Assembly: GCA_043228905.1 (NCBI GenBank)
Contig: JBHGNT010000011.1
Coordinates: 3,286,001-3,350,000 of the forward strand
Length of the DNA: 64,000 nt
Direction of reading: 5' to 3'
Origin: Azolla caroliniana
Taxonomy: Eukaryota > Plantae > Polypodiophyta
A program made the position numbers and the translations under genes. Every line of letters starts with the position of its first letter. Within the stretch, counting starts at the first letter, position 1. The notes under the pieces are model-generated. The model saw only the letters and a list, made by a program, of their open reading frames with translations. It had not been told where the DNA came from and made no database searches. Shown piece after piece: positions 22,624-54,944 of the stretch.

Positions 22624-22943
22624 TTGAACCCCCGCCGCTTGTTCTCGTAATGTTAATATAGTAGCCTCGAGTTGATGAACCCGTTGTGATAGCTCCTCAT
22701 ATTGATGAGCTTTCTTTGTACTCACTTGTTGTAGATCCCTGAGTAGCCTTTGATTTTCTTGCTCTAATTCCACAAACTTAGTCGTGAGCATGTCGAGCTC
22801 GGAAAGGACACACATATACTGTTGCTTGTTGACGGACTCCATAATTGAGGGGGAAAAAGAAACAAGGAAAAAGAAGAAAGCTTGCTAGGGTTATTGGAAA
22901 AGGAAAAAGAAAGAATTCGGTTCAAACTGTCGTGACTCGTGAG

Positions 22944-23009
<66 letters not shown>

Positions 23010-26000
23010 CTTGAAATGGAAATGAGATTATATTATGAGGAAACAAGATTACAAAGAGTAGGTTAAGGGCTAAAGACTGGCGTTGAATCGAATGAGTTGT
23101 GATGAATGAATGGACACTTATTTATAGATCCTTATGGAGTATTCTAGAATGTTCTAGAATATTTTAGATATTTATGATAATAAATATAATCATCAAATAT
23201 TCAAGGATGTTCTAGAATAATCTAGAATGTTCTAGAATATTCTAAATATCTCGTAATAACTAAAAATAAAATTATTATAATTACACATCATATATGTTAT
23301 TACAATGGTTAAGGGTTCAACATATAGACCAAGAAGTTGTGGGTTTGATTCCTGGTTAATGTATATCTTCATGACATTATCCCCCCTTTTTGATGTTGAG
23401 TTGTACGAGTCAGAGGACAAGAGTTCAGACTTGGTTTATGGGGATATTGGTTTTGAAATGCAACAACCATGTCGGAGGCATTAGCAAGATGCTCGACAGG
23501 CTCCCATGTTCGATCATTAGGTGTATAACCTAAGCAATCAACCAAATAATATGGTTTGTTGCGGATGATCTTGGAGTCGAGAATGGCAACAACCTCATAT
23601 TCAGAGCCATTGGAAACTTTGAGTGGAGGTGGGGGAGGTGTAAGACGACCCAAAATAGAGCTTGTTGTGTAGGGCTCCGAAAGTGAAACATGGAAGACCG
23701 GGTCAAGACGCATATGAGGAGGAAGATCAAGACGAAATGTCACATCATTGATCTTACCAGAGATCACATATGGGCCGAAATGTTGATAATCCAATTTGTA
23801 GCAAGGTTGGGTGATTTTGATGCTACCTTGTAAGAGCCATACATGATCGCCTACTTGAAATGTAGCCGATGAATCACGCCGATGACTATCAACAATCTTC
23901 TTTTGAGTGTTTTGGGCATCACATAAATGATGCAAAAGTATATGATGAAGTTCTTGGAGTCGGGTGAGCCGATCTTCAACAGCCGGGTTTTTCGGGAGTT
24001 CGGGATGTTCAAGCATCATCCAACGAGGATGGTACCTAATGTTCGCAAAAAATGGGGAATATCTAGTAGAAGAATGTTTGGAGTTGTTGTAACCAAATTC
24101 CGCCAAATGAAATAGATCCACCGAATCATCGTGTTGATAGTTGACAAAACAATGTAGATATTGTTCAACCGTTTGGTTGGTGCGCTCACTCTGCCCATTA
24201 GTCTCTGGATGGTAGCCGGAAGAGAGTTTACAAGAAGCATGTAAGAGTTTGAACATGTGCCGCCAAAATTTCGAGATGAATTGGGGACCCCGATCACTGA
24301 TAATATCATATGGAAGACAATGATGGCAAAACACCTCCCGCGTGAGTAAATCGGTTGTCTCTTGACTAGTAATGGTCTTCATGCATGGAACGAAATGCGC
24401 CATCTTTGTAAAACGATCGACTACCGTGAGAATAGAATCAAATCCCTTGGAAGGTGGAAGATCCATAATAAAGTCCAAGGAAATAGATTTCCATGGGCTC
24501 TCGGGAATAGGCATTGGCTGTAATAAGCCATATGGATGATGTTGAGGCTTTTTTGATCGACAACATGTATCGCAACTAGGAACATAATCTGTAACAAAAT
24601 CGCGAACCCGTGCCCACCAATATCGGCGAGAAATCAACTCAAAAGTCTTGTGGATGCCGAAATGTCCAGCCCATGGTGTGTCATGACATTGTTGCACGAC
24701 TTTGAGTCGAGAAGGACCATGAGGCACATACAAGAGAGTTTGTCGAAAAAGTAAACCATCATGCTAGCTAAACTAGGTGTAGTCTAGACGAGGATTTTGA
24801 GATTGGGAGCTGGAAGCACAATTTGGGATAATATGGCTCAAAACTCTTGGGTGAATCATCGGTCTCAATATGCTCCTGAATGGAATCAAGAAGCCTTGAA
24901 TCTCTTGGTGTGTTGATAGTATGCATTGCCATTAGTCATAAACGATCAAGACCTAAGAGGATTTGCTTTTGACTTTCAAATGTGGCCTCTCTTGGTTGAA
25001 GTTCCATATATGAACGTTGAGATAAAGCATCTGCTTTGTTGCATCCCAGGGAGATATAGAATTACGAAATCAAAACGAGTTAAGAATTGCGCCTAACAAG
25101 CTTGTCGACGATTCAAGACTTGAGCACTTTGGAAGTATGTTAGATTTTTCTGATCATTGTAGACAATAATCAGTTGAGAAGAACCCTCCAAAAAATGATG
25201 CCATTGTTGAAAAGAATCCACAATGGCAAGAAGCTCTTTGTTGTGAATCTCATAGTTGATTTCTGCAGCTTCAAATTCCCGTGAGTGAAAAACCATTGGG
25301 TGCAGTTCGCCATCTTCGCCAATTTGGGATAGTACGCTTTCGAGTGCGAAATCAGATGCATCAGCTTCAAGTATAAACCGCCTGATTGGATCGACATGCA
25401 TTAAAATTGGTGCAAATGTAAACGCTTGCGTTAAACTCTGAAATGCAGAGTTCACATCTATACTCCATACAATTGATCAATTCGTTTGCGTCAGTTGAGT
25501 GAGGAGCAATACAATCTTTGAATAATCTTTGATGAACTTGCGATAAAATTTTGCGAACCCCAAAAAACATTGTACATCTCGCACAGACTGTGGTGTTTGC
25601 CAATCCAAAATTGTTTGAACCTTTGATGGATCCATAGAGATGTCATTTGAAGAGACTATGTACCCCAAAAATTCCACTTGACATTGGTTGAAACTACACT
25701 TCTCCAAAAAACTTGGCGAACGTGTATCTCATCCTCCTCTTGAGTTTTTGAGTAGAGATCAAGATATCATCCAAGTAAACTATGATGAAGATATCGAGGA
25801 ATTCTTGAAGAATGTCATTCGCCATATGTTGGAAAAAACTTATTCGTTTAACACATCCTTTAATTGGCTCAAGACATCAAATCTATTCTCATGGCATGGG
25901 CTATTAGGCTTAGTACTTAAGTTATTAGAAGTGATAGTAGAACTTGAGGTAGGGTTGTCATGTGCACTTACTTGGTAAACCTGATGTCTGGGTTTATGTG

Positions 26001-26469: not shown

Positions 26470-29400
26470 TGTTACATGCATGACCATATAATATCCCGTG
26501 GTTAGAATTTACCGTAGTATTCTATACACGTGGATAAGTGTGAGGGTTAAATGAGAGTGTAAAGAAGGGGAGGATTACTTTTAATCCTCGAGATTGAGAC
26601 AACCCATTAGGCCAAGTGTGAACATGGTAGGGGGCCTTGGGTATCGCTATAAATAGAGGCCTAGCTACCCTCATTTCATTATCTTGTTGACTACGTCGAG
26701 ACTCTGTCTTGTGGTGGGTCAACTCTTGTAGCGAGCGCGCCAGCACCAGGTACGACTCGACGCCACGGCGGTGGTATGGGATGCCGATCGAGGCTCGAGT
26801 CCGTCTCGATCCCTTCGCTCGGGGGTGGTCGGGTGGATCGACACCCTGCTTTCTCTCTCTCCTTTCTTTCTATCTACCTAGATCTATCCTTATCTAATGC
26901 TTACTTTAGTACATGTCTCTAATATTTGGTATCCGAGCCTATGTACTAATCTTTCTTTTGTTGGTCTTATCTTCTGGATGGATGGCGATCGATCGTTGTG
27001 CGGTTCGCCTTCATGCAGACAATGATCAAAAAGGAACTTCGGTAATCTTTCTTGTTATTTTTTGTCTATTTTTTCTTCACCCATCTAATCATGTGTATGG
27101 TTAATATGTAGATTATTTTCATTAATGAAATGATGTTGTAGTGGTATTTAATTGGTTATCTAAAACGCTGACATATGTGCACGAGGTCAATACCTTGTTT
27201 GACATATAAATAATATGTGATGAGTGTCGTATGCGTACAAGGTTAATACCTCAATTACGTATTACGTTCACGAACATATGTTACGTTTGCGTATGAGGTC
27301 AACACCTCGATTTTGTTGTAAATGATGTGTTTGGTCCCGTATGCGTAAGAGGTCAATACCTCAATTGCGTATTACGTTGAACCCTTATTTTTGGATGTCT
27401 CGTGTGCATAGAAGTATATGCCTCGATTACGTCATTTTTGGCTATTAAATATAACGATTTCTTTAATATAGGCATATGGGGTCACGTGTATACGTAGTTG
27501 ATCGTATATATGTGATAATACACATATGTGTATATAAGTTATTACGTGATTTTAAATCGAATGTTTTCCTTTTCGGGGAAAGGTTCTTGGTGGCCGTCCT
27601 CACATTTTTGTGAGAATCGTGTTGTCACCATCCCTTTTTTCAACAATTTTTTATTGTTGAAATCCCCGTTGGTGACTTCAATATTTTGTTACGTAAAGAA
27701 ACGCCAATAGCCATAATGATGTTGAGTACGTAGGGTTTGACCCACTTCATGTGAGGTCGCTCTTATGACACACGTATCCAACATCCCTCCCTCATTACAT
27801 GGATACGATGCCACCATGAGATCATTCTTACGAGAGGCATTCGTAATGACGTGACCATGTGATGGGCCACGTGGGCCTACTACGAAAAGAGGGCTCATTT
27901 GGCTTGACCATTAGGTTGCACTTTGGCGTATGCCATCGTAATTACGAGACTTGAGGTTAGGTAACGTACCAACATAGTTGTAGTAAATGAGGGCGAAATA
28001 AGGACTCTTGACATATATGTTTCTTTTAAAAAAACATATATGTGCAAATGCCTCGCATATCTCTTATACGTATGAAGCATTAAACATTCAAGAAGAGCAA
28101 CTTACTTGGTTGGATCAAATGTTAATGCATTTGTTCTCGAGGTCTCGAGTTCAAATATGACCAAGATCATACAACATCGTTGATACATATGATTATAACA
28201 CATGTTTAGACTTGAGGTCTAAGTGCAGTTCGGGGTCCTCGTAATAGGACTTAAAGAGCCGAAACCACATATGTGGGCACCGAAACATAGTTTATTGTTA
28301 ACATTTTTTTCGTGCATAAACTATTCATGACGCGAACATACATGGTTGAGCCTCGGGGAGCCACCATGAACAAATCTATATAGAGATCAGGGAAAGACAT
28401 TTATTTGTCACCCCCATGGTTTTTAAAACACCTTTGTGTTACCATAGTCACCTGATCTTGAACCTCATCTCATACGTCTAGAGGGGTATTGACGTGAGAT
28501 CATGATATCGATTAATGTTTGCCCATGATATGTTTACATCACGACATGATGTTATGACTATTTCTCTGACTTTATCCTATTTCTTTTCCAGAAATAATCT
28601 TTAATGGCTCAAATTAACGACCCGATGTCATCTGCTCAAGCGGAAGGAACTCAAGGGAATCCTCCTGGACAAATGTCCACTGAGATGTATTTGGCACAAA
28701 TAACCCAATACCTTAGTTTCACCGCTCAACAGATGACCGAACTTCGGCAATCTCAAAGTGGTCTCGAGGCATGTGTCATTAGTCTACAACGTGAGACTAA
28801 TAGACCTGATGAGCGACAAGGTGAACCATCATTTGTCGTTAAGCCATTTACGGGAGACAAAAAGGAAAGAACCGAAGAAGCAATCTGCACATGGTTGGGA
28901 CGATGGGAGTCTCATTTTGAGCTCTATCCCACGCCAGATAGTACGAAGATTGCATATGTCGGTTGAGAACTAGGGGGTAAGGCCGCCGCCTGGTGGCGTG
29001 GGCTCTGTTCTATGGGGAAATTGCCTGATACCTGGACATATTTTGTCACGGTTTTTAAGGGCCAATTTTTGCAACCTCCCTCTCGAACCAAGGCAACACA
29101 AGCTTTAATGAACCTCTCTAGCAGGAAATTTTCCTCGCTAGAAGACTATGTTCACGCTAGAAGACTATGTTCACCATGCTAGAACCCAAATCCAAAAATC
29201 GGGTCTAGAAGGGGACAATTAGTTAATAGCTTGTTTTGTCAATGGCATCCCCAATTCGGACTATCACTGGATAGAGCACGATAAGGATCCAAAATCCTTC
29301 GAAGAGGCCGTTGAAATAGTTTTTCGCTATCAATGTACTTCAAAGAAGGACCACAACAAACCCAACGAAGCGCCCGAGACTAAGCAGTCGCAATTCGCTT

Positions 29401-32400
29401 GGAAACGCAAGACACCCAACGAATTCACGGATCGCGATTGTAAGTGACAACATCCTTTTTGCGTTTTCTGCAAAAAGAAGGGTCATACAAAAGAGCAATG
29501 TCGAAAGCTCCAACGGAAAGAGCACGACGACAAAGCCAAAGATGCAGACCATAAAGGTCAGATTCCTAATGTCCTTCAGGTCTATCCACATCATTTAAGT
29601 AATTGTCAATGTTCTTTCCCTCACTATGTATTGGGTCCCAATGATTTACTACGTGCAAACGGGTATATCAATGGATCTCCCGTACAATTTTTATTTGATT
29701 CGGGAAGCTCACACAACTTTGTGAATGATCGTTTGGTTAAGATATGGGGAATCCAACCCACCGTAAGTGATCACACCTACACGGTGCACTTGGCTAATGG
29801 AAGAGTACAATACATCAACGGGGCGATTCATTCATTAGGAATTTCTATTGATACTTATATAGAGGAAGTAGACTTCCATGTAATGAATCTTTGTACCATC
29901 GATGTAATACTGGGTTATCCCTGGTTTTATAATAAAAACTCTTCTTTATTTATTGATTGGGTTTGTCATTCCATTTCTTTTGTACTAAATGATTGTACAC
30001 ATTTTATTCAATGTGTAAAAAAACAATCCCCCTCGATTGTTTCCTCGTGTCCCTCAATATCCGAGTTGTCTTGTTCTACTCTATTTTATTGTGTACTTGA
30101 TCCAGACATTCACGTTTACAATATTGATAATGTCTTGGTTCAATTAACATATTTTGAACAACAACAACTTGATGAAATCTTAAATGATTTTCGTGATGTT
30201 TTTCCGAGTGAACTACCAGATGGTTTACCTCCTAAACGTAATATAGACCATCGTATAGATATTGTACCTGGAGTTTCAGCAATAAGTATACCTCCTTATC
30301 GCTTAAGTCAATCTGAAGAGGATGAGGTATCTAAGCAACTCAAGGACTATTTATGAATGGGTTATATACATTATAGTAAATCTCCATGGGGTGCACCAGT
30401 TCTCTTAGTTAAAAAGAAAGAGGGCACATGGCGTATGTGTATTAATTACCGACGCTTGAATAAAGTGATGATCAAGAATTCGTATCCATTGCCCCGGGCT
30501 GATGATCTAATTGACCGTCTCCAGGGATCCCGGTATTTTACGAAACTTGATCTCCGTATTGGCTACCATCAAATTCGTATAAGTGAGGACGATGTTCCTA
30601 AAATGGTATTTCATACGCGCTTTGGTTATGCCTTTTGGTTTGACCAATGCTCCAGCTACATTTCAACAAAAAATGAATGACATTTTCCGAGAACAACTTG
30701 GCAAATTTGTCGTTATTTTCTTGGATGATATTTTAGTTTATAGCCATACATTACTAGAACATGCTAAACATGTCCGCTTTGTTTTACAAACATTGTGTGA
30801 CAAACAATTTTATGCAAAGATCTCAAAATGTGAGTTCTTCAAGAAATCAATTACTTATCTTGGACATCTCATAACCAAATGAGGAGTTGAAATTGATCCT
30901 TCTCGCATCGAGAAAATCAAGCTTTGGCCCACTCTTCGGAACATTCGAGAAGTTTGATCATTCCTTGGTTTTGTCGGCTTTTTGCGAAAATCCCTTCGTA
31001 ATTACTCCCAATTGACAACGCCGTTCACTAATCTTCTGAAAGGTCAAACGCGTAAGTCTACAAAACCTATTGTGTGGAATGCTACACTAGACCTTGCCTT
31101 TAAGGAACTCAAGGACCTGGTATGCAAGGCTCCTTCACTTCTTTTACCCGATCCTTCAAAACCTTTTGAGGTTGAAACCGATGCAAGTGATTATGCTATA
31201 GGTGCTGTCTTATATCAAGATGGTAAACCAATAGCATTCGAGAGTAAGAAACTTGATTCTGCTCAATGTCGGTATACCGTTCAAGAAAAGGAATTATTTG
31301 TAGTTATACATGCACTCAAAACATGGCGCCATTATCTTTATGGAAATCACTTTGTGGTAACTACGGACCACGAGTCCTTGAAATATTTTTGTGACCAACA
31401 AGACCTGAAAGGTCGTAAGGCACAATGGGCTGATCTCATCCAGGTCTTTGATTTTTTTATACGATATTGTAAAGGTTCCATGAATACAGTTGTCGATGTA
31501 CTAAGTCGCATACGTGAAGTTAACATGCTTAGCTTCACTGAAATAACATCAGATCTTTATGATCACCTTCAAGGAAAGTATCCTGATGACAGTTATTTTG
31601 CAAAATACTGGGCAAGAGTTGAGTCTGGACCAGACACCACCACATCCTCGAAGGAATACTTCCACATTGCTAACGGTTTGCTCTACCGTAATGGGAAGGT
31701 TTGTGTTCCAGATTTACCTGAGGTAAAAAAGAGGATTCTTTTTGAATGCCATGATGCACCCTCAGCAGGGCACCCTGGAATACATCCTACACTCGCTCTC
31801 ATCTCCACTCAATTTTATTGGCCTAAGATGCGCCCTGACATACATAGCTATGTGACTAAATGTCACCAATGTCAGGTTAACAAAGACGAGCGACTTAAAG
31901 CCCCTGGACTCTTACATCCCTTGGACATTCCAAATAATAAGTGGGAAAGTATATCCATGGATTTTATTGTTAGCCTTCCTCGCACCCAAAAAGGCCATGA
32001 TGCCATCTAGGTTGTGGTTGATCGACTAACTAAAATGGCTAGATTTATTGCTACTAAAACCAGGGCAATAGCTCTTGAATTGGCTTACCAATTCATTGAC
32101 GAATTGTTTCGTTTTTATGGGTTACCGATGGATATCGTGAGTGATCGAGATCCAAAATTTACTAGTGACTTCTGGACGCAAGTCTTTAAGAAGTTAGAAA
32201 CTACGTTGAGCATGAGCTCCAGGGATTATCCTCAATCCGATGGACAAATAGAACGAGTAAATCAAACTATTGAGGACATGCTTCGAGCATATGTTGGTGC
32301 AAAACCAACAAATGGGAACGTCATCTCCCAATTTTGGAGTTTGCTTATAACAGCTCCAAGCATACGTCGATGGGATATAGTCCTTTTATGTTGATGTATG

Positions 32401-33446
32401 GTTTTCAGCCACGAGCCCCGATTGATGTTACTATACATCATGATGAGTTGCGAAGTACGCAAAAATTTCTTCGGGATATGCAAGATATGTTGTATATTGC
32501 ACGAGATAATATAAAAACAGCTCAAGATAGAGCCCGTTTTTATGCCGATCATCATAGGCAACCTCGTGTATTCAACCTTGGATATTGTCTACGGGTAAGT
32601 GCGCTAAGTTAACCCCACAGTTTTGTGGACCTTTTACAGTCCTCAAACGCATTGGGTCATAAGCCTATCGTCTCGCTCTTCCTGATGGTGTTGGAATTCA
32701 TCCAATCTTTCCTGTGAGTCGTCTAAAAGAACTTCTAGGTTCTGGCGATAATACAGTTACAACTGAAACTCTGGTTACTTCTAAAGATTTATCTTCTAAA
32801 CCACATGTACTAGAAAGAATTCTCGATGTTAAAACAAAAAAATTACGTACTAAAGAAATCCGAGAATTTAAAATAAAATGGATGGATAAATCAATAAAAG
32901 ATGCCACATGGGAACGTGAGAATACTCTCAGAACTAACTTCCGTAACTTTCCATTACAAGAGTGCAATGTTTTAAAGAGGGGGAATATGTTACGGGCATG
33001 ACCATATAATATCATGTGGTCAGAATTTACTGTAGTATTCTATACACGTGGATAAGTGTGAGGGTTAAATGAGAGTGTAAAGAAGGGGAGGATTACTTTT
33101 AATCCTCGGGATTGAGACAACCCATTAGGCCAAGTGTGAACATGGCTGGGGGCGTTGGGTATCGCTATAAATAGAGGCCTAGCTACCCTCAATTCATTAT
33201 CTTGTTGATTACGTCGAGACTCTGTCTTGTGGTGGGTCAACTCTTGTAGCGAGCGCGCCAGCACCAGTTACGACTCGACGTCACGACGGTGGTATGGGAT
33301 GCCGATCGAGGCTCGAGTCCGTCTTGATCCCTTCGCTCGGGGGTGGTCGGGTGGATCGGCACCCTTCTCTCTCTCTCTCTCTCCTTTCTTTCTATCTACC
33401 TAGATCTATCCTTATCTAATGCTTACTTTAGTACATGTCTCTAATA
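26470..33446 (+). mobile_element. Element E: full-length Gypsy chromovirus with iMet-type PBS, inserted in gag of C
   Basis: LTRs 26470-26924 and 32988-33446; TSD GCCAT/GCCGT; PBS TGGTATCCGAGCC 26927-26939; PPT 32974-32987. Gag starts at 28604, then CVFCKKKGHTKEQC knuckle, LFDSGSS protease, FLDDIL RT, RNase H, integrase and chromodomain (ERILD...KIKW...DATWE). Several stops. Confidence 0.95.
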
Positions 33447-34551: not shown

Positions 34552-35053
34552 TGTCGAGACTCGTGGGTAGAAGATAGAGTGAGAGCGAGAGTGAGAGCGA
34601 AAGAGAGAGGGTGTGTGTGTGTGTGCGTGAGAGAGAGAGAGAGAGTGAGAGAGATAAGACTTGAAATAGAAATGAGATTATATTATGATGAAACAAGATT
34701 ACAATGAGTAGGCTAAAGGCTAAAGACTGGTGTTGAATCGAATGAGTTGAAACGAATGTATAGACAGTTATTTATAGGTCCTTATGGAGTAATCTAGAAT
34801 GTTCTAGAATATTTTAGATTTTATGATAAGAAATATAATCATGAAATATTAAAGGATGTTCTAGAATCATCTAGAATGTTCTAGAATAATCTAGAATGTT
34901 CTAGAATGTTCTAGAATATTCTAATATCTTGTAATAACACATAATTATTATAATCACACAACATATATGTTATTACAATGGTTAAGGGTTCAACACATAG
35001 ACCAAGAAGTCGTGGGTTCGATTCTTGATAACCAAAATGTTGTCTTCATGACA
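34552..35053 (-). mobile_element. Solo LTR of a C-related family inserted in the integrase of I
   Basis: TG...CA ends, perfect TSD CCATC (34547-34551/35054-35058), collinear with the C LTRs including the (TCTAGAATGT)n repeats. Confidence 0.93.
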
Positions 35054-36861
35054 CCATCCACTTGAAGTGGATGGTTGGAGGGTAGGTTGGGTGGAGCTCG
35101 TCCCGATGTCGGACTATGGAGTGCATCTGACAGCTTTCGCAAGTCGTCACGAACTGATGCACGTCCCGGTATAGTCCCGGCCAACAGTACTTCCCCTTCA
35201 GCTTCTCGAATGTGGTCCACATCCCGCGGTGCACAACCTAGGGACTTTCGTGCTACGCCGCCAACAATTTCTCCTGCTCCTCTTTCTTTGCCACCACCCG
35301 GAGCGGAACGCCGTTTCTCTTCTTCAGGTGTTTCCAGATGCACCCATCTCTCAGGAAGAATCGATATGCTTTCTTGAGAACCCGGTTAGTCTCTTCCTTC
35401 GTCCACGCCATGCCGGGTGTCATTGTCTTCAATAACCCGCCGATCCGGAGCCACTCCCCACCGTACTTGCTCTCGTCAAACTTGTTAAGCGCCGGAGTGC
35501 TCCCCTTCCTTGTTGTCACGTAAGCCGACTCGAAGAAGTCCACGCCGACTTCTTCGTCCTCCGAAACCATGCCGTCCTCATCATCGAATCTCGCCCTTGA
35601 AAGCATGTCGGCCATGGCGTTGTCTTTTCCGGAAATGTGCCATATTTCCGGAATCAGGCACTTGATGTACACTATCCACCTGAGCATTGCTAGGTTCTGT
35701 GTCGTGCATCCAGAAACCAGACTGAGAATTGGTAGACAATCCATCTCAATTATCACCTCTATCCCAATCAGGTAGTCTTTGTCGGCCTTGGCCGCCGAAA
35801 CGATACCCTAGAGTTTGCGTTTAACCTGGGAGTATCCTCGTTGTCGTTCACTGAGGACTTTTGCACCAAACCGAATGGGGAACCTCGTGCCGTTCTCATC
35901 CTCCTAGTTGATTACCGATCTAATTCCGGTCGGACTCGTGTCTACGGTCATGTAAATCGGAATGTCTTTACCGTAGACCACTTTTCGGAGTGTCGGTGCC
36001 GCATCAAGTGCTTCTTTCATTCTCCGGTACACATCCGTACTAGGCCGAGGGGAGTCCGCATCGTCGTAATTTCCCTGCTCTCCACGGCTAGCTGGAACTG
36101 ATCGTATCCCGAGTACAGATCACCGACCGAGTAAATTGACCTTCCGGTGAAGGCCTCCGCGAACTCGTCTATGGTCGGTCCAATTCCTGCGTTCCGAATG
36201 GTCACCTTGTTGATCGGCTGTAGGTCCTGAATGAAGCGCAGCGTGCCGTTCTTCTTGGGCCTAGTAAACCACCGATTAGAATACAGGGCACTCGATGGTT
36301 CGAGGATATGCCCATATCCACCTTCTGTTTCAGCAACTCCATCAACTTCAAGATGTGAGCTCTAGGAATTGGAATCGGTTTGAGATTCCACGGTACATGT
36401 GGTATTGTGAAGATCACCATCGGTTCCACAATCGTCGGGTCTACGCACCTGATCTCCTCCGGCGAGAATGCAAAGGCCTTTCCGTGCCTCTCGAGCATTC
36501 TCCGAAACCGGCTCTCCTTCGTCGGCAGTAGAAAGCCGCCTCTCGTAGCGTTTTATCGGTGAATCAGTGTCCTATGCCAGCCGGATCTCGTAAACTTGGG
36601 TTTGACACGACCCCCTTCATCCGTAACTCGCTGCCCTCCGGCAAGGGTGCCGCGACTGGCCTCACCTTCCAGTCCACAGTCTTGTACTTCGTATCCACTC
36701 GAGCCGTCCGATCTGACTCGAGTCCTCTACCGAAGTCGGCAATGACTTCGTACGTCTTTTCCGTACATACCGGAATCATCTGGTCTCCACTAAGGCCCTC
36801 TCCAAACACCTCCCGTAGCCTCCCCAAGGTGTCGTCGAAAGAGACCGCCTCCATGGCTCCG

Positions 36862-39800
36862 TGTCAGGAATAGTACTAAAGCAGAGATGGAATTAGTACT
36901 AAAGAACAACAATACTATTAGTACTAAGAGGACAGGACTGCGTAAGATTCCCGAGAGAGGAAGTGAGAAGAGGAGAGAGAGAGATAGCGAGAATGAGAGA
37001 GAGAGAGAGAGATGATGACAACAACTAATATATTATGTGAAAAGATAAGTACAAGCGGCTAAGAGGCTTAAGACTGGCGTTGAACCTATTTGGTTCAAAA
37101 CAATGCCTTGTGCCTCCTTTTATAGTGTTTTTAGGAATAATCCTGAAGCTTCTAGAATGTTCCAGAGAGATCTGGAATATACATCAATTTTCTATGATAA
37201 AGCATAAATGAAAATAATATCCTACAAAATACAATTCATCGTCTAATGGTAAGAGCTCGACCCATGTAGCATAAGGTCATGGGTTTGAGTCTTGCCATAT
37301 CATGACACTATCTTCCCCTTAAAGACGACGAGTGGAACAAGTCAGCGCTAATTGCGGATCGGGTTTGTCCGGATACTTTCGGTGGAAATCAGCAAGAAGA
37401 TCTTGTGCATTGGCAACATGCTCGACGGGTTCCCAAGTACGTTCGCTCGGACTATAACCGAGCCAATCGACCAAGAAATAAAGTTTGTTGCGAACAAGTT
37501 TGGAATCGAGGATGGCAGCAACTTCATACTCTGGGCCGGCGTCCAACTCCAGCGGGGGCGGCGGTGGTGTCACACGATCGGGAATGGTGTTTGCTTTATA
37601 AGGTTCAAGAAGAGAACAATGGAAAACCGGATGTATCTGAAGCTGCGGAGGGAGATCAAGGCGGAAGGTGACATCATTAATCTTCCCTGTAATACGGAAA
37701 GGACCGAGTCGTCGATAATCCAACTTGTCGCACGATCGAGTAGTCTTGATGTGACGACGTAAGAGCCATACTCGATCTCCGATGGCAAAAGAGGAGGGAA
37801 TCCGATGACGATCCGCATAAGTCTTCTGTGTGTGTTGAGCATGACGAAGGTGAGTAGAGAGATCCATCTGGATCTTGCGTAGCCTCTCCAAATGATCCTC
37901 GGCACGAGGGTTGGTAGGTAGCTCCGGAGTGTCGATCACCGACTAGCGAGGATGGAAACCGGTATAAGCGAAAAATGGGGAGACCTGAGTCGAGGAGTGA
38001 ATAGCATTATTATATGCAAACTCCGCAAAGTGGAGAATCTCGGCCCAATCGTCCTGTTGATAACTCAAGAAACACCGGAGATATTGCTCCAGCGTTTGGT
38101 TTGTTCGTTCTGCCTGTCCGTCGGTTTGAGGATGGTAGCCGGAGGAGAGGTTGCAGGAGACCTTGAGCATCTTGAAGAGATGCTGCCAAAATTTGGAGAC
38201 AAATTGCGGGCCTCGGTCACTGATAATACTGTCTGGGAGGCCATGATGCCGAAATACCTCACGCATAACAAGAGCGGCGGTTTCCTCGCTAGTGATGGCT
38301 TTAGTACATGGCACAAAATGTGCCATCTTCGTATATCGATCGACCACGGTTAGGATAGCATCGAACCCCTTCGAGACTGGCAGATTTGTGATAAAATCAA
38401 GACAAATAGACTGCCATGGCTTACTTGGAATCGGTAAAGGTTCCAACAAGCCATATGGATGGTGTCGTGGCATCTTTGCTCAGCAGCAAGCATCACAGGT
38501 CCGAACGTAGTCGTCGACAAAACGTCGCATGTGGGGCCACCAAAAAGATCGTTGCACTAGCTCTAACGTCTTAGTACTACCGAAATGTCCCGCCGTATGG
38601 GTGTCGTGACAATGTTGGACGATTTGAAGGCGACAGGAGCAATCGGGGACATATACGCGCTTTTTAAAGAATAACAAACCATCATGATATTCAAATTGTT
38701 GGTAGTCAATACCTGGTTGTTGAGACTGAGAGCAGGATGCCCGAGAAGTATCAATGTGCGCCAGGATGTCTTGAGCAAAACTATCCGTCTTCAAGGTTGC
38801 ACGTATGTCATCGGTAATCCGTGAATCCATCGGGGTGTGAAAAATCCGCGTCGTGTGCAATCGTGTTGGTCCCAAGATTACTTGCTTTTGATTATCAAAT
38901 GTTGCGTCACCAGGACGAGGTGCAAGATATGAACGCCGTGATAGTGCATCTGCTTTTCCTGGCTGCTTCCCCTGTCGATATGTGATTTTGAAGTCGAAAC
39001 GGGTGAGGAATTGCGCCCATCGAGCTTGCCGTCGATTTAGTACGCGAGCGTTCTGAAAATAAGCAAGATTTTTATGATCGCTAAAGACAATGACCTGATG
39101 TGGAGAGCCCTCTAAGAAATGTCGCCATTGTACAAATGAATCCACGATGGCTAATAACTCCTTGTCATGTATTTCGTAGTTGATTTCTGCGACATCGAAT
39201 TTGCACGAATGGAAAGCCACCGGATGCAACTCTTCTTTATCGCCTTGTTGAGAAAGGATGCTACCAAGGGAGAAATCTGATGCGTCGGCCTCCATGATGA
39301 ATGGTTTGCTTGTATCCACGTGAGCTAGAATCGGTGCTGATGTAAAGGCTTTCTTAAGATGCCGAAAAGCCATATTTGCTTCTATGGACCAAAGAAATGC
39401 TTGGCCCTTCTTCATAAGTTGTGTGAGAGGTAAAATAATCTTCGAGTAATCCTGTATAAACTTACGGTAGAAGTTAGCAAAACCTAGAAAACATTGTACA
39501 TCTCGTATCGACCGTGGAATTTGCCACTCTAGTACAGTTTGGATTTTAGCTGGATCCATGGCGATGCCCTTTGAGGAGATGACGTAGCCTAGAAATTCCA
39601 CTTGCTTGCAGTCAAAGCTACATTTTTCTAGCTTGGCATAAAGACCATTCTCGCGGAGTTGCTTTAGTACTAATAGTACATGAGAATCGTGCTCTTCCTG
39701 GGTCTTCAAATAAATCAACAGATCATCTAGATAAATGATCAAACAGATATCCAAGAGGTCTCTGAATATATCATTTGCCATGTGTTGGAAGACTGCGGGT

Positions 39801-42560
39801 GCATTGGTTAGGCCAAACGGCATAACAGTATACTCGAAATGCCCATACCGCGTGCGAAAGGCGGTCTTCCACTCATCTCCCGGTCGGATCCGCACGAGAT
39901 TATACGCTCCTCGTAGGTCGATTTTAGTAAAAAACTTGGCACCATTAACTCGCTCTAAAAGACTTGATATAAGAGGAAGTGCATACCTATTCCGGATGGT
40001 GACTTTATTCAATCGCGGTAATCAACGACAAGACGAAGTGAGCCATCTTTCTTCTTGACAAAGAAGATGGGTGCACCGGCCGGAGATTTCGAATGACGGA
40101 TGAACCCGCTTGCCAAGTTCTCCTCTATGTAGGCTCGAAGGACTTCTAACTCGGTGGGTGACAAGTTGTAAATTGGTCCCCATGGTGGCCCGGTTCCTGG
40201 TTGTAAATCAATGGGACAGTCATAGGGACGGTGATGAGGAAGGGTACCGGCCTTTACCTTGTCAAATACATCGGCATAAGGATGATATTTTGCCAGAAGT
40301 TGTACTGAGGAGTCCTTCTTAATAGTGCTGGAAGGATGTACTGATATGGCAAATAGGAACATTGCCTCCTTGGGTCCTTCTTCGCGTAGTTGATGGAGTG
40401 AAATGGTCGAAACTCGGTGAGTTGATTCTTGGGGTGGTCGATATCGGACTTCTCTTGTTCTCCAATCTATGGCTGGATTATGTAATTCAAGCCAAGGTAA
40501 TCCTAGGACAATGGGATGCTTTGGACTACTAATTATATTAAATGATATTATACACACAAAACTACCTAGGACAACTTGAATGGGTTCTGATTCTTCTACA
40601 ATATTCCCGGAAGCAATGGGACGACCATCAATGACCACTACAGATGCGGGACAAGGAAGTTTTCTTAAGGATATCTGAGAAGCTTGTGCAAAATTTCGAT
40701 CCATGAAACAGGAATTAGCTCCGGAATCTAAAAGTGCTAGGATGGGTACTAGGGGAGTACTTTTAGTACTAACAATGACTTGGGCTAGGAACACATTGCT
40801 AACTTGCTTGGAAGGAATGGAACCACTAATGGGCTGTACAGATCTAAGGCTGCTGTCCAACCAAACGGCTCCTATTTTGGCTGGACTCAATCGTTTAACT
40901 CTTCATCTAATTGACTAAGGATTTCAAATTTATTTGAGATACTTGGGCTATTAGTACTATGAATACTATCTGACACTCTATTAGTACTATTAATACTATT
41001 AGACACTCCGAAGGGAAGAATTGACTCGGGTTTAGTACAGGCGACGATTTGATTTACCAGTCTTCTTGGCCTATGGGGACAATTGATGGCGATATGTCCT
41101 AGTCCACCACAATAAAGACATAATCGATTGGCACGTCGTCGTTGCTTTTCTTCTTCCGATAACAGGCCGTGTCGACGCATGGTATCGATCTCCATCGGTG
41201 TCGAAGTATTTGCTTGAGGTATGTCTCGTGCAAACGGTTTAGCCGCGATTGCGGCGTAAATGGGCTCCGGCCTAGAGCGTGGTATCTATAATTGACGTTT
41301 TGAACGTCGTTCGAAAATGCGGTTGTCACATCGAACTGCTCGACTGATTGCCTTCGTAAGAGACTTTGGTTCTTCGGGGAAAGTTAGAAGTAGATCTTTG
41401 ACATCGTTTCGCAAGCCATAGCAAAACTGCTCCATTAGTGCTTGATCATCCTAGGGTATATCTGAAGCAAGTAGGCGGAAATCCGCCGCGTAGGCAGAGG
41501 CTGGACGACCGCCTTGACGCAATCGCCGGATCTTGTTGATCGCTGTCCTGATGCTGTTGGTGTCTCCAAAGCAGGCTTTAAACTCACCAATAAAATCTTC
41601 AAAGTTATTAAGCAAGGGCGAATCTTTTTCTAGAAGCGGAGCGAACCATGCCAAGGCTGAGCCGCTAAGTAGTGTGCCTATTAGGCCGACTCGAGATGCA
41701 TCAATGGGATATCGGGAAGGATGCATCTGGATGACTAAGCGTACCTGATTAAGGAATCCCCGGAATTGCGAACGCGTTCCATCAAATTTCACAGGAAGTC
41801 CAATCTTGGGCTCTTTATGAAATCCTTGGGGACTTGATCCTTGTTGTTGCAACGCTGCTTCGAGTTGTTGTACCTGTAACACTAACTCCCCATGTTGTTG
41901 TTGCGTTTGTTGTTTTTCTAGAGCGATTTGTTGCAGATCCCCTATTAGCCGTTGGTTTTCTTGTTCCAAGGCAACAAACTTTTCTTTTAGGCATTGTAGC
42001 TCGGAGAAAACGGATTGGTATTCCTGGGCGCTAACAGTAGCCATAGTATAGGGAAAAGGGTAGGAGGATGAGGGAGAGTGACAAGTAGGCTGGAGGAAAA
42101 ATTGGTTCAAACTGTCAGGAATAGTACTAAAGCAGAGATGGAATTAGTACTAAAGAACAACAGTACTATTAGTACTAAGAGGACGGGACTGCGTAAGATT
42201 CTCGAGAGAGGAAGTGAGAAGAGGAGAGAGAGAGATAGCGAGAATGAGAGAGAGAGAGAGAGAGATGATGACAACAACTAATATATTATGTGAAAAGATA
42301 AGTACAAGCGGCTAAGAGGCTTAAGACTGGCGTTGAACCAATTTGGTTCAAAACAATGCCTTGTGCCTCCCTTTATAGTGTTTTAAGGAATAATCCTGAA
42401 GCTTCTAGAATGTTCCAGAGAGATCTGGAATATACATCAATTTTCTATGATAAAACATAAATGAAAATAATATCTTACAAAATACAATTCATAATCTAAT
42501 GGTAAGAGCTCGACCCATGTAGCAGAAGGTCATGAGTTCGAGTCTTGCCATATCATAACA
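36862..42560 (-). mobile_element. Element D: near-intact Gypsy chromovirus (Tcn1-like), apparently the youngest insertion
   Basis: LTRs 36862-37307 and 42113-42560 (roughly 97% identical by eye); perfect TSD CTCCG; PPT 37308-37323. Gag 40887-42044, pol 37319-40890 (LLDSGA protease, YLDD RT, RNase H, integrase, chromodomain) with only a few stops or frameshifts. Confidence 0.97.
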
Positions 42561-45429
42561 CTCCGTTGATTTCCTCTCCGGGGCCGAGGACTCTACATGC
42601 CCTGAGTCGTTGTTCTACCTGCTTCTTCTCCCGGCCAACGACGTCGGTTATTGTACAATTTCCATTGTCGGAGAACCAAAACTTCCTACCTATGTTACAG
42701 GTTCTTCTGCCAACTACACACGTGTGGGGTTTTTCTGGAGTGTCCGGACTATCGCGGCCCCACGCCTTGATAGCCCTCTCTAAAAATCCCCTCAGCTTTT
42801 GCCGCCAAGGGTCTCTCGGTTTCGTTCATGGTTCGGTCATATCGTTAGAAACTGGACGGAGTGACGATGGTCCTGGCTCTTGACTCGCGCGTACGCCGAA
42901 TTGTTGTCCAGAACCTTAGTCTCCATTCGCGCCGCTGTGATGTACGATTCCCCGAGTATCACCGGATGCGAGGATGTCTCCTACACAAAGAAGTGTTGAT
43001 CGATCTTGACATCACCGATTTTCACTCATACGTTCGGGCACGCTCCGTGTAGCTCCTCCGTGGCGCGTGTCGCCGCTCGTATTTTCCACCCGTGCTTGGT
43101 GTTGATCGGCCACATGCCCTTCTTGTAAAAGTCCATGGATATCAAGTTGATTTCCGAACTGTGGTCCACCAACACCACCACCGGCGCATGGACATCTCCG
43201 ATCTTAACGGGGTTCTCCGTAGTGGCTCTGGCCCAATGTAGCCTCGAATAGTGGCTTTCCGCCCGAACCGGGTCTCATACCGTTGCAAGGGTCCAATCCC
43301 TCTAGTCTTTCCCGCATGCTTCTCTTCCACCAGAACCTCGTAGTTCTGGCACGCGGCTTCTACGAAGCCCGTCTTTTCTTCGACCGGGTCACTCCACCTG
43401 GTTACCTCCCGGACTCGTCTTTCTGCGCGGTCCGCTTCCTCTTTCCTCAATCGTACGCCGGCGAGGCCTTCTAGCATCAACGGCCAGAACACGGAGTCCT
43501 TCGTCTTCCGGACTTCGTCGATCCCGACCCGGATTCCTACCGACGCCGAGTAGTGGACGGTCTCCGCGTGACGAGCCGCCGCTTCTTGCATCAGCGCTTC
43601 ATTCCCCCTCGTCCAACATTTAGTTCCAGGGCCCTCCTGGTTTCGCTAACGTGTACACGCCCGTTCCACAGGTACGCCACGGTAGACCTTATCGCTTCGG
43701 CGAAATCCCCAGGCGTGGCCGACCGCGTCGCACCACAAGCACCGATGCTCGGCCAGAGGCCTTCGGTCGCGGGCTTGTTCGCCATTGTCCCTTCGTGCCT
43801 GTGCAATCTGGAGGTCCCTCACCATCTGAGTCAGCTTCTCCAGAGCCGCACCTTTGGACGGGCCCTTGACCACGCTGGTTGAAGTCGAACCGGTCTCAAG
43901 CGAATCTCGGGTTTCCTCCCTTCGCACCGGTGGGGGTACCTCGAGCTTCCTTGCCGCAACAGAGCCTGCCCCCGCCGAGCCTTTATCGACCCAATCTCGT
44001 TGTTTGTCGAAACGGACGCAGACTCTCTTCACCATGGCCCAGTCGGCCGTCAGCCCATCGTCGGTCTCCAGCAGGAGGCCCACTTGCTCCCGGTCCCTAA
44101 CGTCCACCGATTTAACAAACAATAGGACACGACTTGTGTCCAGTACGGTCCGGTCCAGCGCCGAAAGACGTGCGAAGCGTTCTTCAAACTCCAGGAGGAG
44201 CACCAATGCGTTTCTCCCCTTTTCGGGGGTCTCCACCCATTCCATGAAGTCCCGCTTCGATACCCGAAGCGCATCATCTAGCTCGTATTTCTCAAGGAGC
44301 CGACCTTCAAATTCTTCCCAGGTCTGGCTCTCAGCCCGTACCTGGAGCACCTCCGCATGGATGCTCGGCATTGCCACCCGAGGGAATCCGGCCAGTCGCC
44401 TGTCCTCCGGAATGTTCCTCATCATCATTTCGGCTCGGTAGGCCGCCAAATAGCTCATGGCGTCCTTTCCGCCAAACCGGCCTATCGTGCCGATGATCGC
44501 TTCAACGGCCCTATCGAGGGTGCCTGTGCCTTTGCGCACACTCACTATCCGATCCACAACTGAAGCCATGACTTCAGCAAGCTCCAATCCCCTCATCTTC
44601 CTATTCCTCTACCGCCTTTCACGTCGGGTTCACCAAATATGTCACGTTATTACGCGTGTGCGTGTACAACGAGGCAGGACCGCAGGGGTCTTGGTCTGAG
44701 GGACAAGAGAGCCGGAGGGGAGCAAGAGAGACAACGGCCGTGCTGACAATGGTCGTGCTTCGCACACGCACAAATACACAGAAACCGCAATTGATTGAGA
44801 CAAGATGAACGTGTGTAGGTGTATATATATATACCAGATAAAAGGGGTTACAACCAGCGGGCCGGTGAGTGACGAGCTCTGATGCCTACATGCACACATG
44901 CACACAAACGCGAGAGGGAGACTCAGCCGGAAGCACTCGGGCATTCCGCGGAGCAGAGTCTGCCTCCCGAAAACCTGCATAGATCAAATACAAAGAAAGA
45001 CAAAGAAGAAGGCCTTGGTCCCAGTTCGTCAGCACTTCGTCCTCGACAAAAGAGATCCCCATTACGATTCCTCTCCCTCTCTTTTATAGCCCAAGGAGGG
45101 AGGCCGTCACAACCCGTTACATCATCTTTATTCTTTGTCCTTTCGGACAGAGATACGCCTCGATTTTCTACCTAACAAATGCGTGCTACCTAGGATATTC
45201 ACATCAACCGACTTGTACCTAAATGTATATATTACAAAAAAACTTGTGCCTACATATAAGGGTCAGTTCGCGCTCATTATTCTCCGATTCCGCCTAGGGA
45301 CAATTTTCTCCACGACAACGGACTCCATAATTGAAGGGGAAAAAGAAAGAAGGAAAAAGAAGAAAGCTTGCTAGGGTTATTGGAAAAGGAAAAAGAAAGA
45401 ATTCGGTTCAAACTGTCGTGTCTCGTGAG

Positions 45430-45497
<68 letters not shown>

Positions 45498-48400
45498 CTT
45501 GAAATGGAAATGAGATTATATTTTGAGGAAACAAGATTACAAAGAGTAGACTAATGGCTAAAGACTGGTGTTGAACTGAATGAATTGTGATGAATGAATG
45601 GACACTTATTTATAGATCCTTATGGAATATTCTAGAATGTTCTAGAATATTTTAGATATTTATGATAATAAATATAATAATCAAATATTCAAGGATGTTC
45701 TAGAATAATATAGAATGTTCTAGAATATTCTAAATATCTTGTAATAACTAAAAATAAAATTATTATAATTACACATCATATATGTTATTACAATGGTTAA
45801 GGGTTCAACACATAGACCAAGAAATTGTGGGTTTGATTCCTGGTTAATGTATGTCTTCATGACAACCGTCTGGTCCAGAGCCAAGGAAAATACATTTCCC
45901 GGACCTTGGTGCAAGCTTTTGGCGATCGTCTTTTGGCACGAGAGCATAAGCCTCGTAGCCGAAAATCCTTAGTTTCTCATAATCCGGTTTTCTGACGATC
46001 CATAATTCTTGAGGAATATGATGTCCCAGAGGTCTACTCGGCGACATATTGATTATGTGTATTGCTGTAAGTAGAGCCTCTACCCAGAAGCCATCTGACA
46101 ATCTGGAGTGGTGGATCATGGACACTATTCATTCTTGAATTGTTCGATTCATCTGTTCAACGATTCTATTTTGCTCTGGACTATGAGGTTTCGTATATTC
46201 ACGCATGATGCTGCGCAATCGGAAAAATTTGGTGAATTCCTCATATCTGAACTCTTACTCGTTATCAATCCGAAGAAATTTTAGTTTTCCACCATGGCGA
46301 GCCATTCGGAAAAGATCGAGAATTCACGATCTTTGGTTTTGGCCGGATAGGCCCACACATTCCGAGTTGAATCGTCGATGAAGTTGACGAAATACAAGGC
46401 ACCACCAAGTGATTGATCTAGCATCGGGCCGCAAACATTTGAATGGACCAAGTCGAGCGAACTCGACTCTCTTGGTGTTGTCGTGGGGTGTGAAGCGGCT
46501 ATTTGTTTACCGTATTAGCAATGCTCAGAAAACTAATTATCGGAGAAGGAGAATTTGGGAATATATCTGGCTCTAATGAATGTGTGACGTTGGCTTTGAT
46601 GAGGTGTCCGAGTCGACCAAGCCATAATGATGACACGGGAATATCAACTAGAAACAAGTCACCCTCTCTAAGTGTGACATATAACGGCTACAATGAATGT
46701 ACTTTCGGACCTCGGGCAAGCAAGAGGTTTCCCCTTTGGTGTGTCCACCCTCCTGATGAGAAGCCAACATGGACGCCATCTTCACTGAGTTGTCCGACCG
46801 AGGTCAACGGTCTTGAGAGCTTAGGCACGTGTCAGACATTATGTAGCACCAATGTGCCGATTCTGATTATAACACAATGTTGCGAATTTCCGATTTAGAC
46901 TGAGTTGGAATGCTGGGCCGAATATTGCCAAAATTGTGATCTATGAGGAGTCACATGGTAGGACACGCCCGAATCCAAGAGGCAAGTGCTTGACTCTTCA
47001 GTCGTAAGCACAACTTCTTATTTGACTGAGTGTTCTATGAACATAATGTTTGCGTCGTCCCTCAATACTTCGGTTGATGAGCCGATGTAATTGACCTATT
47101 CTTGTCGGCTGCCCTTGTGATCAGCTCTCGGAGCTTTATCATTCCTGTCTTTGAGGGCGTGGCAATCAACCTTGATATGTCTGAGTTTCTTGCAATAGTT
47201 GCAAGTTCGATTATCCAGGGACTTGCTCCGGGTTCGCTGATTTTTCGGTAATCAAGAAGAACCTTTCCCACGACTGTTCGGTCGTTCGTTCGAACCTTGT
47301 ACTATGTAGGCATCTTTGGCCGAATCGTTTGCAAACAATTTTCTCTGAGTTGATTTAGTGAAGATTGAGCTTGTGACTTTGGAGTACTTTACTATAGTAG
47401 TCGATGCATTGCACACAGTTGCGACGAAAGTTTCCCATGAAGGGGGGAGACTACTCATTAGCAACATTGCTTTTAGTTTGTCTTCTATTGTCGTCCCTTG
47501 AGCTGAAATTTGGGAGCTTAGGCTTTCGTACTTGTTGAGGTGTGCCTAGAACAAGTCGAATTATTTCATCTGACGATTGTGGAGGTGCCGGATCAGGTAT
47601 ATCTTTGTTGCGGCGACCTTTTTTTAATAAGTATCCGAGAGTGTCTTCCATAATTGGAAGGTCGTTCAACACGATTACACTATGAAGTACACTGACTCCA
47701 ACAAGTGCATCTGAAGGGTGGTGCGGACGATTTGGTCCAACTTCGTCCACTCATTTAGCCTATATCCTTCTAGAGCATTTTCAGTCTTGATTGGGTTGAT
47801 CTGACCCTCGACTATCAGATAGTCTTACATCTGATCCTTCCAGAAGTTGAAGTTCGATCCGTCGAACTTCCTTAGACTCATCTCTAATGAGCTCGATGTT
47901 GATGTCATCTATGTCGGCTTGTACTTCAAGAGTGATTTAGTCTAGGTGTTTCTCCTCAAGAAGAAGGATCTTGTAGAGAATTGTTGGCCGAAACATTTTA
48001 GTCCACTGAAATATTAGATTATGTTCCAACAAAAAAATCAACAGAAGGTTCTTCAAAGGTTTCTAGAGGGGTGTTGATAGAGACAGGATGACAACCTGCA
48101 ATAGAATCAAAGACGCCAATCTCTGATACCATATGTTGGAGACTAAGACCGTCAATTTGGGGAAACAAGGATCAACAACTTTGTGAAGTACAACAAGATG
48201 AACAAAACACACGACCAATCGACAAAGTGAGAGGGGGAGAGAGAGACTCAGAGGCACACAATATATAACTTGTATTATTCAAAATGGCAACCGTAACAAT
48301 GAACAACCATAACAACTAGGTTACAAGAGTCAGTTTAAATACCAATTGACTTGGGCAACTACCCTTTCCAATATTTATATAAATATTTACAATCGTACAT

Positions 48401-54052: not shown

Positions 54053-54092
<40 letters not shown>

Positions 54093-54944
54093 GAGCATAG
54101 ATAAAAGATAGAGACAATGTATGATTCAAGAAAGAAGATTGAGACAAAGTATGATTCTAGAAAGAAGATTGAGACAAAGTATGATTCAAGGAACAAGAGT
54201 ATATGATATAAACATGATGTATATTAAAAATATAATATTTTACCAACTTTACAATCCTTGATCGCAAGATGAATCTTTTCAATACCGACCCTTGATTTGA
54301 ACCCACGACTTCCACTTTTAAACGCAAGTCTCTTCACCGAATACGATATCTTCAATACTTGCTTAAATTCTTTTCTCCCACTTTCTCTTGATCCCCTCTT
54401 ATTTCCTTGCCCCTCTTTATATAATTGTTGCCATGCATATGGTAATGTATGCAAGCATGGCATGCATGCAATGCATGAGTTACATGTAATGCATGATCGC
54501 CATTTGGTGTACATGCATTGCATGTGATGCATGATGGCTATGTATGAAAATAGATATGGGATAAGTATAATGATGAAAATGCATTTTACAATAATTAACC
54601 TAGCTCAGTGGTGCATGCTTTGTGTTTGGTATACAAGGTTGAGAGCTCAAGTCTCTCTATTTTACTCAATACAATATATACCTTCATTCTTATATCATGA
54701 AACACATTTTTTTACAAACTTTTACAAATAAATAGCCTAGCCTAGTGGTATTTACATTGTATTTCGTATATAAGGATGTGGGTTCAAGTCTCTCAAATAT
54801 TATTAAATACAATATTTAAGCTCATTTTTATATCGTGAAATACATTCTTCACGACAGCGTACCTTCTGTGTGTTAATCTCTCTCTCTCCCTGTTGCTATC
54901 CGGCTAAGCCGGTTGTCTAAAGCTTCCGCACCTTCGTTTTTACA
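48588..54944 (+). mobile_element. Element G: Copia of family A lacking its 5' LTR and PBS
   Basis: Gag starts MDRGMARSLPVEKLDRSNY at about 48662; the polyprotein is collinear with A but has many stops. PPT 53572-53583; 3' LTR 53584-54944 (interrupted by a solo LTR). Confidence 0.93.
53913..54856. mobile_element. Solo LTR (944 bp) inside the 3' LTR of G
   Basis: TGTCG...CGACA inverted ends and a 4-bp TSD GCAT/GCGT. Contains (GT)n(GA)n, three 30-bp repeats (about 54105-54195) and three tRNA-like modules. Confidence 0.75.

Follow-up and report, generated by a model that had tools for sequence, protein, structure and literature searches.

A tRNA-type promoter module, an A box and a B box at tRNA spacing, is spread over two clades of Tcn1 retrotransposons and over Phygy-type elements, and in both lineages it lies back to front in the U3 region of the LTR. 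The analysis started from a window of 64,000 nucleotides (unprefixed coordinates are positions in this window) that sits within a 523-Mb plant genome in which LTR elements are abundant and of which the Tcn1 and Phygy content points to a non-seed plant. The pattern of what is conserved suggests that the module likely acts as DNA, and the reading that we favor, at a probability that we would put somewhat short of even, is that it serves as a docking site for TFIIIC that aids the element's own Pol II promoter.

Family D, on which the analysis centers, is a single element in the window (36862-42560, minus strand, 5,699 bp) between two copies of a 5-bp target-site duplication, CTCCG (36857-36861, plus strand, and 42561-42565). 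Its 3' LTR (36862-37307, minus strand, 446 bp, TG..CA) and 5' LTR (42113-42560, minus strand, 448 bp) are 96.4% identical. Also on the minus strand are a Ty3 capsid-like gag region (41064-42050), a pol region (37319-40902) encoding protease, RT, RNase H, integrase, and a chromodomain (about 37376-37528) that is interrupted in this copy by stops and a frameshift, and a polypurine tract (PPT; 37308-37320). The chromodomain matches PF00385 with an E value of 3.5e-13, and in an alignment its aromatic cage (Y232, W253, and Y256) is invariant or nearly so. The Pol II promoter of the element has its TATA box (42372-42377, minus strand) 114 nt inward from the A box of the module, and between module and TATA we find an array of TTCnnGAA/GAAnnTTC (42398-42430, also 37145-37177), which we take to resemble heat-shock elements.

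The primer binding site (PBS) of family D, GTTTGAACCAAT (42101-42112, minus strand), is not of tRNA type. These 12 nt past the 5' LTR are complementary to LTR sequence 33 to 34 nt after TATA, where the 5' end of the RNA is predicted (42332-42343, minus strand; 12-nt complementarity, 34 nt past TATA). A match of 9 to 13 nt between PBS and RNA 5' end, 33 to 34 nt after TATA, recurs in 31 of the 32 elements listed, and primer and PBS sequences co-vary across three families. Family D primes in a Tf1-like manner, by self-priming, and hence does not need the module for priming; a preliminary description of this locus had likewise held that D uses no tRNA primer and that a priming role is unlikely. 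By these features family D is a self-priming Tcn1-type chromovirus. Named matches among its best 120 protein homologues come from one alga and one fungus only, and in the tree, which holds no reference Tcn1 set, a fungal protein lies closer than family E, another chromovirus of the window. A search of viral contigs returned no relative of the element; among prokaryote genomes there was one match, a 711-bp contig of a bacterial assembly (L301) that encodes a Tcn1-like integrase end and is probably contamination. Contigs from runs guessed to be RNA span the D LTR, and such contigs show neither strand nor start sites. In contigs from three runs (X2, X3, and X5), the R-start palindrome (L028:1394) is the point at which U5-PBS passes into the opposite strand, a junction that would be the self-priming duplex, as either a fold-back intermediate or a library artefact.

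The module occupies 37239-37291 in the 3' LTR (A box 37239-37249, AGGTC 37274-37278, B box 37282-37291) and 42492-42544 in the 5' LTR (A box 42492-42502, B box 42535-42544), in both cases on the plus strand. Since the element is on the minus strand, the module reads antisense within U3 and outward from the LTR, facing the PPT and integrase in the 3' LTR and flanking host DNA in the 5' LTR. Box matrices were trained on 11 host tRNA genes; against them the modules score 20.2 and 21.1 bits, respectively, and each beats 200 of 200 dinucleotide shuffles (null maxima, 13.5 and 13.1), which answers positively the question of enrichment over shuffled LTRs that the preliminary description had raised. 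The A-to-B spacing is 43 nt in D and 42 to 45 nt in host short-arm tRNA genes, and with its A and B boxes at tRNA spacing the D module has the layout of a type 2 Pol III promoter. The two copies in the window have decayed, and the scores of some young copies match those of host tRNA genes; the module of D copy L028 reaches 30.6 bits, with 28.8 to 32.8 bits for 10 short-arm host tRNA genes.

The preliminary description was right on the coordinates, the 43-nt spacing, the orientation, and the distance of 10 nt that separates the CCA from the edge of the LTR (edges at 37307 and 42560). Other details needed correction. The A box that it quoted occurs in neither window copy (TCG.. and TAA..), and the quoted B box differs from each by one change; the quoted consensus 16-mer has 519 occurrences in the genome and none in the control. 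The terminal CCA is no tRNA tail, standing as it does directly after the T-arm equivalent, about 9 nt before the tail position, and it is missing in most other families. We rejected the reading of the module as a tRNA gene: ARAGORN called no tRNAs in the window, Rfam gave no tRNA match at an E value of 1 or lower, and the acceptor and anticodon stems are lost.

D-clade 3' LTRs were gathered by way of the PPT pattern or the chromodomain, or from unselected stretches, and grouped by U3 similarity, module included. Among the 43 obtained, 41 score at least 15 bits, 42 have a spacing of 43 to 44 nt, and 35 carry the B box GGTTCGAGTC; a D-clade pattern has 2,521 matches in the genome and none in the control. 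The B box is better preserved than the A box. It is unchanged in all nine D-clade copies with LTRs that are at least 98.5% identical, among which there are five A-box variants, and the A box of the youngest D sublineage is weak, at 5.2 bits. The proposal that young copies should retain the motif is borne out for the B box of young D copies (9 of 9) but not for the A box, which is lost in some young families, nor for one family in which both boxes are lost. In inserted copies we saw no sparing of the boxes from methylation-type decay in 22 LTR pairs, a sample of low power in which CpG differences amount to 5/44 for the B box and 18/237 for TATA-R-U5. The argument that conservation of the boxes reflects selection can be kept only in part: retention by selection in transposing lineages is supported, but boxes in inserted copies change as much as other parts of the LTR or more. 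Selection, if any, works on lineages that transpose and not on old copies.

To follow the module among Tcn1 families, we started from 193 3' ends, 162 of which had enough protein and U3, and clustered them at 85% identity into 38 clusters, with representatives chosen by reading-frame intactness regardless of score. A module of at least 15 bits is present in 28 of the 35 clusters from this genome and one related metagenome series, and the module-bearing clusters reach down to 53% integrase-chromodomain identity to D; counted by locus, the first series has it in 43 of 54 scanned (6 of 60 were dropped because they were too short or had no called PPT). In a second sample series, none of three clusters scores 15 bits or more, and the module was found in none of 19 Tcn1-like loci (1 of 20 was left out) within up to 600 nt on both strands, where the maximum was 14.6 bits. 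Seven of the 35 clusters score below 15 bits; the clade of L260, L163, and L089 has lost both boxes, and family F retains the B box alone (28 copies; median, 9.2 bits). In the Tcn1 tree, the families that carry the module fall into two well supported clades, with five module-less rows sister to one of them (97/96), and a single module-bearing clade is disfavored yet not rejected (AU p 0.068, with long outgroup branches). In the 22 of 28 clusters with a TATA found, the distance from A box to TATA is 114 to 207 nt. At least two heat-shock-like or RY-like motifs, as we presumptively label them, lie inward from the module in 22 of 28 clusters, a count for which no null was computed.

The second lineage was found through the box pattern. 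A strict A-box/B-box pattern that excludes D has 2,651 matches in the genome and none in the control; by eye, 12 of the first 100 matches are tRNA genes, and 20 non-tRNA matches, when followed, led to gypsy elements. Together with the D-clade pattern, exact-pattern sites number more than 5,000 genome-wide. These Phygy-type elements share 22 to 25% RT identity with D and have a PBS complementary to host tRNA-Trp genes, and 8 of 8 are flanked on at least one side by a 4-bp NCGN; their proteins gave no Chromo match, and the named homologues are liverwort proteins (48 to 65% identity). The module is antisense in all eight elements examined, which were selected by the box pattern. In one family, represented by the LTRs L378-L380, there is, besides two antisense modules, a sense A/B module that lies about 75 nt past TATA, and the promoter is bracketed by antisense and sense modules. 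A solo LTR in the window (53913-54856, minus strand, flanks GCAT/GCGT) belongs to this family, with antisense modules at 54601-54653 and 54738-54790 (plus strand) and a sense B box at 54294-54303 (minus strand). Arrays of CATGCA occur in family F and in Phygy-type LTRs.

Comparison of the two lineages identifies what the module is anchored to. The preliminary description had assigned it a fixed position in the LTR, and in Tcn1 elements the B box does end only 6 to 85 nt from the U3 end. Such closeness might suggest a role in replication or integration, in which TFIIIC steers the integration complex, the hairpin of the D module (described below) aids plus-strand priming, or the module is a landing pad for Pol III-targeting elements. 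In Phygy-type elements, however, the module stands 66 to 690 nt away from the edge of the LTR and about 177 to 208 nt upstream of TATA, so that over both lineages the distance to the edge ranges from 11 to 690 nt and TATA is the constant anchor instead. Furthermore, the PPT of D is normal and its PBS self-priming, and no cluster of insertions is seen at LTR modules; a survey of 325 box pairs with family mates, tRNA genes among them, gave 38 breaks within 160 nt upstream, most of which mark where tRNA-gene similarity stops. We therefore regard a role of this kind as very improbable.

Within the module, a spacing of 43 to 44 nt is kept in 30 of 33 cases (28 Tcn1 clusters and 5 Phygy modules), and information in the 28 Tcn1 clusters peaks at T8, A14, GG, AGGT, and GGTTCRA, of which AGGT lies outside the A/B-box consensus. 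The anticodon stem retains on average 2.55 of 5 pairs (shuffles, 2.94; host tRNAs, 5.0) and the acceptor stem 2.67 of 7 (shuffles, 2.87; host tRNAs, 6.9). A fold z score below -2 is seen in 8 of 34 modules versus 9 of 33 adjacent U3 controls, and RNAalifold gave no common structure in 24 clusters. A T4 run precedes the LTR edge in 11 of 28 clusters. In D there is no T4 terminator from the B box to the edge of the LTR, and, like D, family C and 15 other clusters lack a terminator within the LTR. We favor the docking of TFIIIC on three grounds: the letters and spacing of a promoter are retained but RNA shape and terminator are not, the B box outlasts the A box, and TATA, not the LTR end, is the anchor.

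The same data bear on the rather unlikely alternative that outward Pol III RNA from each LTR is what matters. The product of the 3' LTR would be antisense to the PPT and the integrase-chromodomain end and in D would contain a hairpin of about 20 bp; it might act as a small-RNA precursor, decoy, or self-regulator, for which the Pol III cassettes of foamy virus LTRs offer a precedent (PMC3993851). Most clusters retain the A box and the exact tRNA spacing, and a SINE-like repeat with a related head (see below) starts 11 to 12 nt before its A box, the expected Pol III start. The D-specific hairpin, which is imperfect and predicted at 37246-37299 (plus strand), would pair the last part of the A box and the middle of the module to the B-box arm and CCA, with a z score of -6.1 for copy L028 and compensatory changes on both sides of 8 of 20 pairs, a count equaled in 1 of 500 shuffles but made on 13 related rows that were selected for the hairpin. 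On 13 hairpin-like rows, RNAalifold did not recover it. Modules in general fold no more strongly than adjacent U3, the terminator is missing as noted above, transcripts from the 5' LTR would vary locus by locus, and the A box is weak in the youngest D sublineage.

The SINE-like repeat, of about 210 nt, lies in (AG)n microsatellites (L104, L109, L153, L395, L398-L401, and L404; for example, L153:2224-2438) and carries two opposed tRNA-type modules. Its start relative to the A box, seen in at least seven copies, fits a putative Pol III initiation from this module type. Its head resembles the module of one Tcn1 clade (82 to 90% over 72 to 85 nt), and it inserts into (AG)n tracts, those of Tcn1 LTRs among them. 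As far as similarity can tell, this shows that the module has been exchanged between LTR and non-LTR repeats, in either direction. Conceivably, the module is a useless passenger, a captured SINE head or a copy of the primer tRNA that is occasionally refreshed by recombination. Besides the invasion of (AG)n tracts, the free decay of inserted boxes and the loss of the module in some families agree with this view; copying of a primer tRNA would yield the antisense orientation, and tRNA-Trp, the Phygy primer, has a 43-nt spacing and AGGTT. We nevertheless consider it improbable. The sequence between the boxes is scrambled among clusters and indicates no single tRNA, yet boxes and spacing persist; fresh captures should retain stems and anticodon arm, but the stems are at shuffle level; and the module is kept in two Tcn1 clades and in Phygy.

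In the docking model, TFIIIC, probably together with TFIIIB and Pol III, would bind at the outer margin of the element's own Pol II promoter, which would thereby stay open against silencing that spreads from the flank, with TFIIIB loading presumably on the inward side of the module, toward the Pol II promoter. New copies with an intact B box would be transcribed more and so give rise to the next generation; selection would fall on transposing lineages and not on old copies. The module may have originated by capture of a tRNA or SINE head, followed by LTR-to-LTR transfer or by repeated capture within the host group. Several observations argue against the model. The B box of inserted copies changes at least as quickly as other parts of the LTR; the Schizosaccharomyces pombe barrier is orientation independent (PMC2040200), whereas the orientation of the module is nearly fixed; the module is naturally lost, as the seven low-scoring clusters and the box-less clade demonstrate; and neither the conservation of AGGT nor the strong D hairpin is accounted for. 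A TFIIIC boundary and outward Pol III transcription, the two functions first put forward, remain the leading functional hypotheses.

The module can be compared with several known systems. In fission yeast, tRNA genes are heterochromatin barriers through TFIIIC and Pol III (PMC2040200), and ETC sites bind TFIIIC without polymerase and have boundary activity (PMC3395662). Both are fixed yeast chromosomal loci that work independently of orientation (PMC2040200, PMC3395662), whereas the candidate site described here is carried by mobile plant elements. Cassandra, a TRIM proposed at the outset as an analogue, also has a long-conserved internal Pol III promoter within plant LTRs (10.1101/2023.07.14.548913; PMC10886601), and to this extent the analogy stands. 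Its promoter, however, is 5S type, belongs to a non-autonomous element, and takes the place of the Pol II promoter to drive transcription of the element itself (10.1101/2023.07.14.548913), whereas the module described here faces away from its element and is present alongside TATA.

Closer is Helenus/TRIMp3, with LTR sequence that is tRNA derived, conserved at the A and B boxes, and devoid of tRNA function (Kojima 2024, PMC10886601). As in D, both LTRs carry tRNA-derived A and B boxes without a priming role, and several supplement sequences, including a Selaginella family, have AGGTC before the B box (PMC10886601). Helenus elements, however, are non-autonomous and 311 to 1263 bp long, are tRNA primed, and in the supplement sequences carry the module in sense in the 3' part of the LTR (PMC10886601). 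The elements described here are of autonomous type, 5.7 to 8.7 kb, and keep a TATA promoter and an antisense module in U3, and D thus differs from Helenus in all three traits: small non-autonomous size, sense module, and tRNA-complementary PBS. The same work states that "not a few LTRs" in Repbase are tRNA-like, within an analysis confined to TRIMs, and argues that autonomous partners must depend on Pol II and that long parts of the LTR are unlikely to be common to both (PMC10886601).

Foamy viruses are autonomous retroelements that, apart from A/B-box Pol III units within their LTRs, are transcribed by Pol II; these cassettes are defined hairpins with terminators and demonstrated RNAs (PMC3993851). 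The module, in contrast, has no shared hairpin or terminator and keeps tRNA spacing and AGGT. As for the host elements, Tcn1 resembles D in its self-priming, 5-bp target-site duplication, aromatic-cage chromodomain, size of about 5.5 to 9.4 kb, and occurrence in non-seed plants (Neumann 2019, PMC6317226; Novikova 2010, PMC2864245), and Phygy resembles the second lineage in its tRNA-Trp PBS, 4-bp NCGN target-site duplication, and missing chromodomain (PMC6317226). Pol III boxes are not mentioned in the accessible portions of the Tcn1 descriptions (PMC6317226, PMC2864245), nor are LTR boxes in that of Phygy, which is described as Physcomitrella specific (PMC6317226). In the literature covered, which took in few subscription journals and no Repbase entries, antisense tRNA boxes in autonomous plant LTRs are undescribed.

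How new LTR insertions stay active in silenced, repeat-dense DNA is an open question on which the module bears. A candidate docking site of 55 bp, present in two unrelated lineages and with natural losses of the A box or of both boxes, makes a boundary or anti-silencing role directly testable. The findings also extend the capture of Pol III promoters from short non-autonomous elements to full-length ones, in the opposite orientation. The more than 5,000 sites could compete for TFIIIC and may confound the annotation of tRNA genes. A broader scenario, which we consider possible but somewhat doubtful, is that unrelated autonomous retrotransposons of one non-seed plant lineage have converged on an outward TFIIIC/Pol III site of their own as a portable anti-silencing boundary. 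They would have seeded thousands of sites for Pol III factors, outnumbering the host tRNA genes, and traded the module with a SINE-like repeat, and chromatin domains might have been shaped genome-wide.

The window contains further repeats. Family C carries the module with 44-nt spacing, antisense in U3 (23298-23351, plus strand; further copies at 34971-35024 and 45786-45839). Its U3 has TTCnnGAA arrays (23140-23245 and 34790-34925), presumably akin to heat-shock elements. PBS-side internal sequence precedes both family C LTRs (22832-23376 and 45318-45864), and the layout suggests a tandem or recombined structure with nested insertions of E, C, and D. Chromovirus family E (26470-33446, plus strand), with a TGGTATC PBS that we take to be of tRNA-Met type, has the module in neither LTR and was used as a control; antisense box scoring of its two LTRs and of two copia-region stretches gave nothing significant. 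Remnants of a hAT transposase (DUF659, hAT dimerisation) lie at 8402-10208.

Elsewhere in the genome, a D-like module with a B box ending in GTCC occurs in tandem units of about 260 bp outside recognisable LTRs (L382, L383, L384, and L393). We sought a single donor tRNA for the module among 13 host tRNA types (an incomplete set) and rejected it: the best candidates gave 12 to 19 matches of about 32 (95th percentile of the null, 13 to 16), and tRNA-Trp, with 11 to 16 of about 32, did no better than other tRNAs. Host tRNA genes are found in tandem single-isotype arrays (Tyr, Lys, Ile, and Trp), with many decayed members (L113-L118; L031-L032 and L038-L039; L048; G000:C8:17.80 Mb and C16:5.0 Mb). 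At L353:1490-1565 there is a tRNA-like gene with a TTT anticodon and a body that differs from the common tRNA-Lys(TTT) copies.
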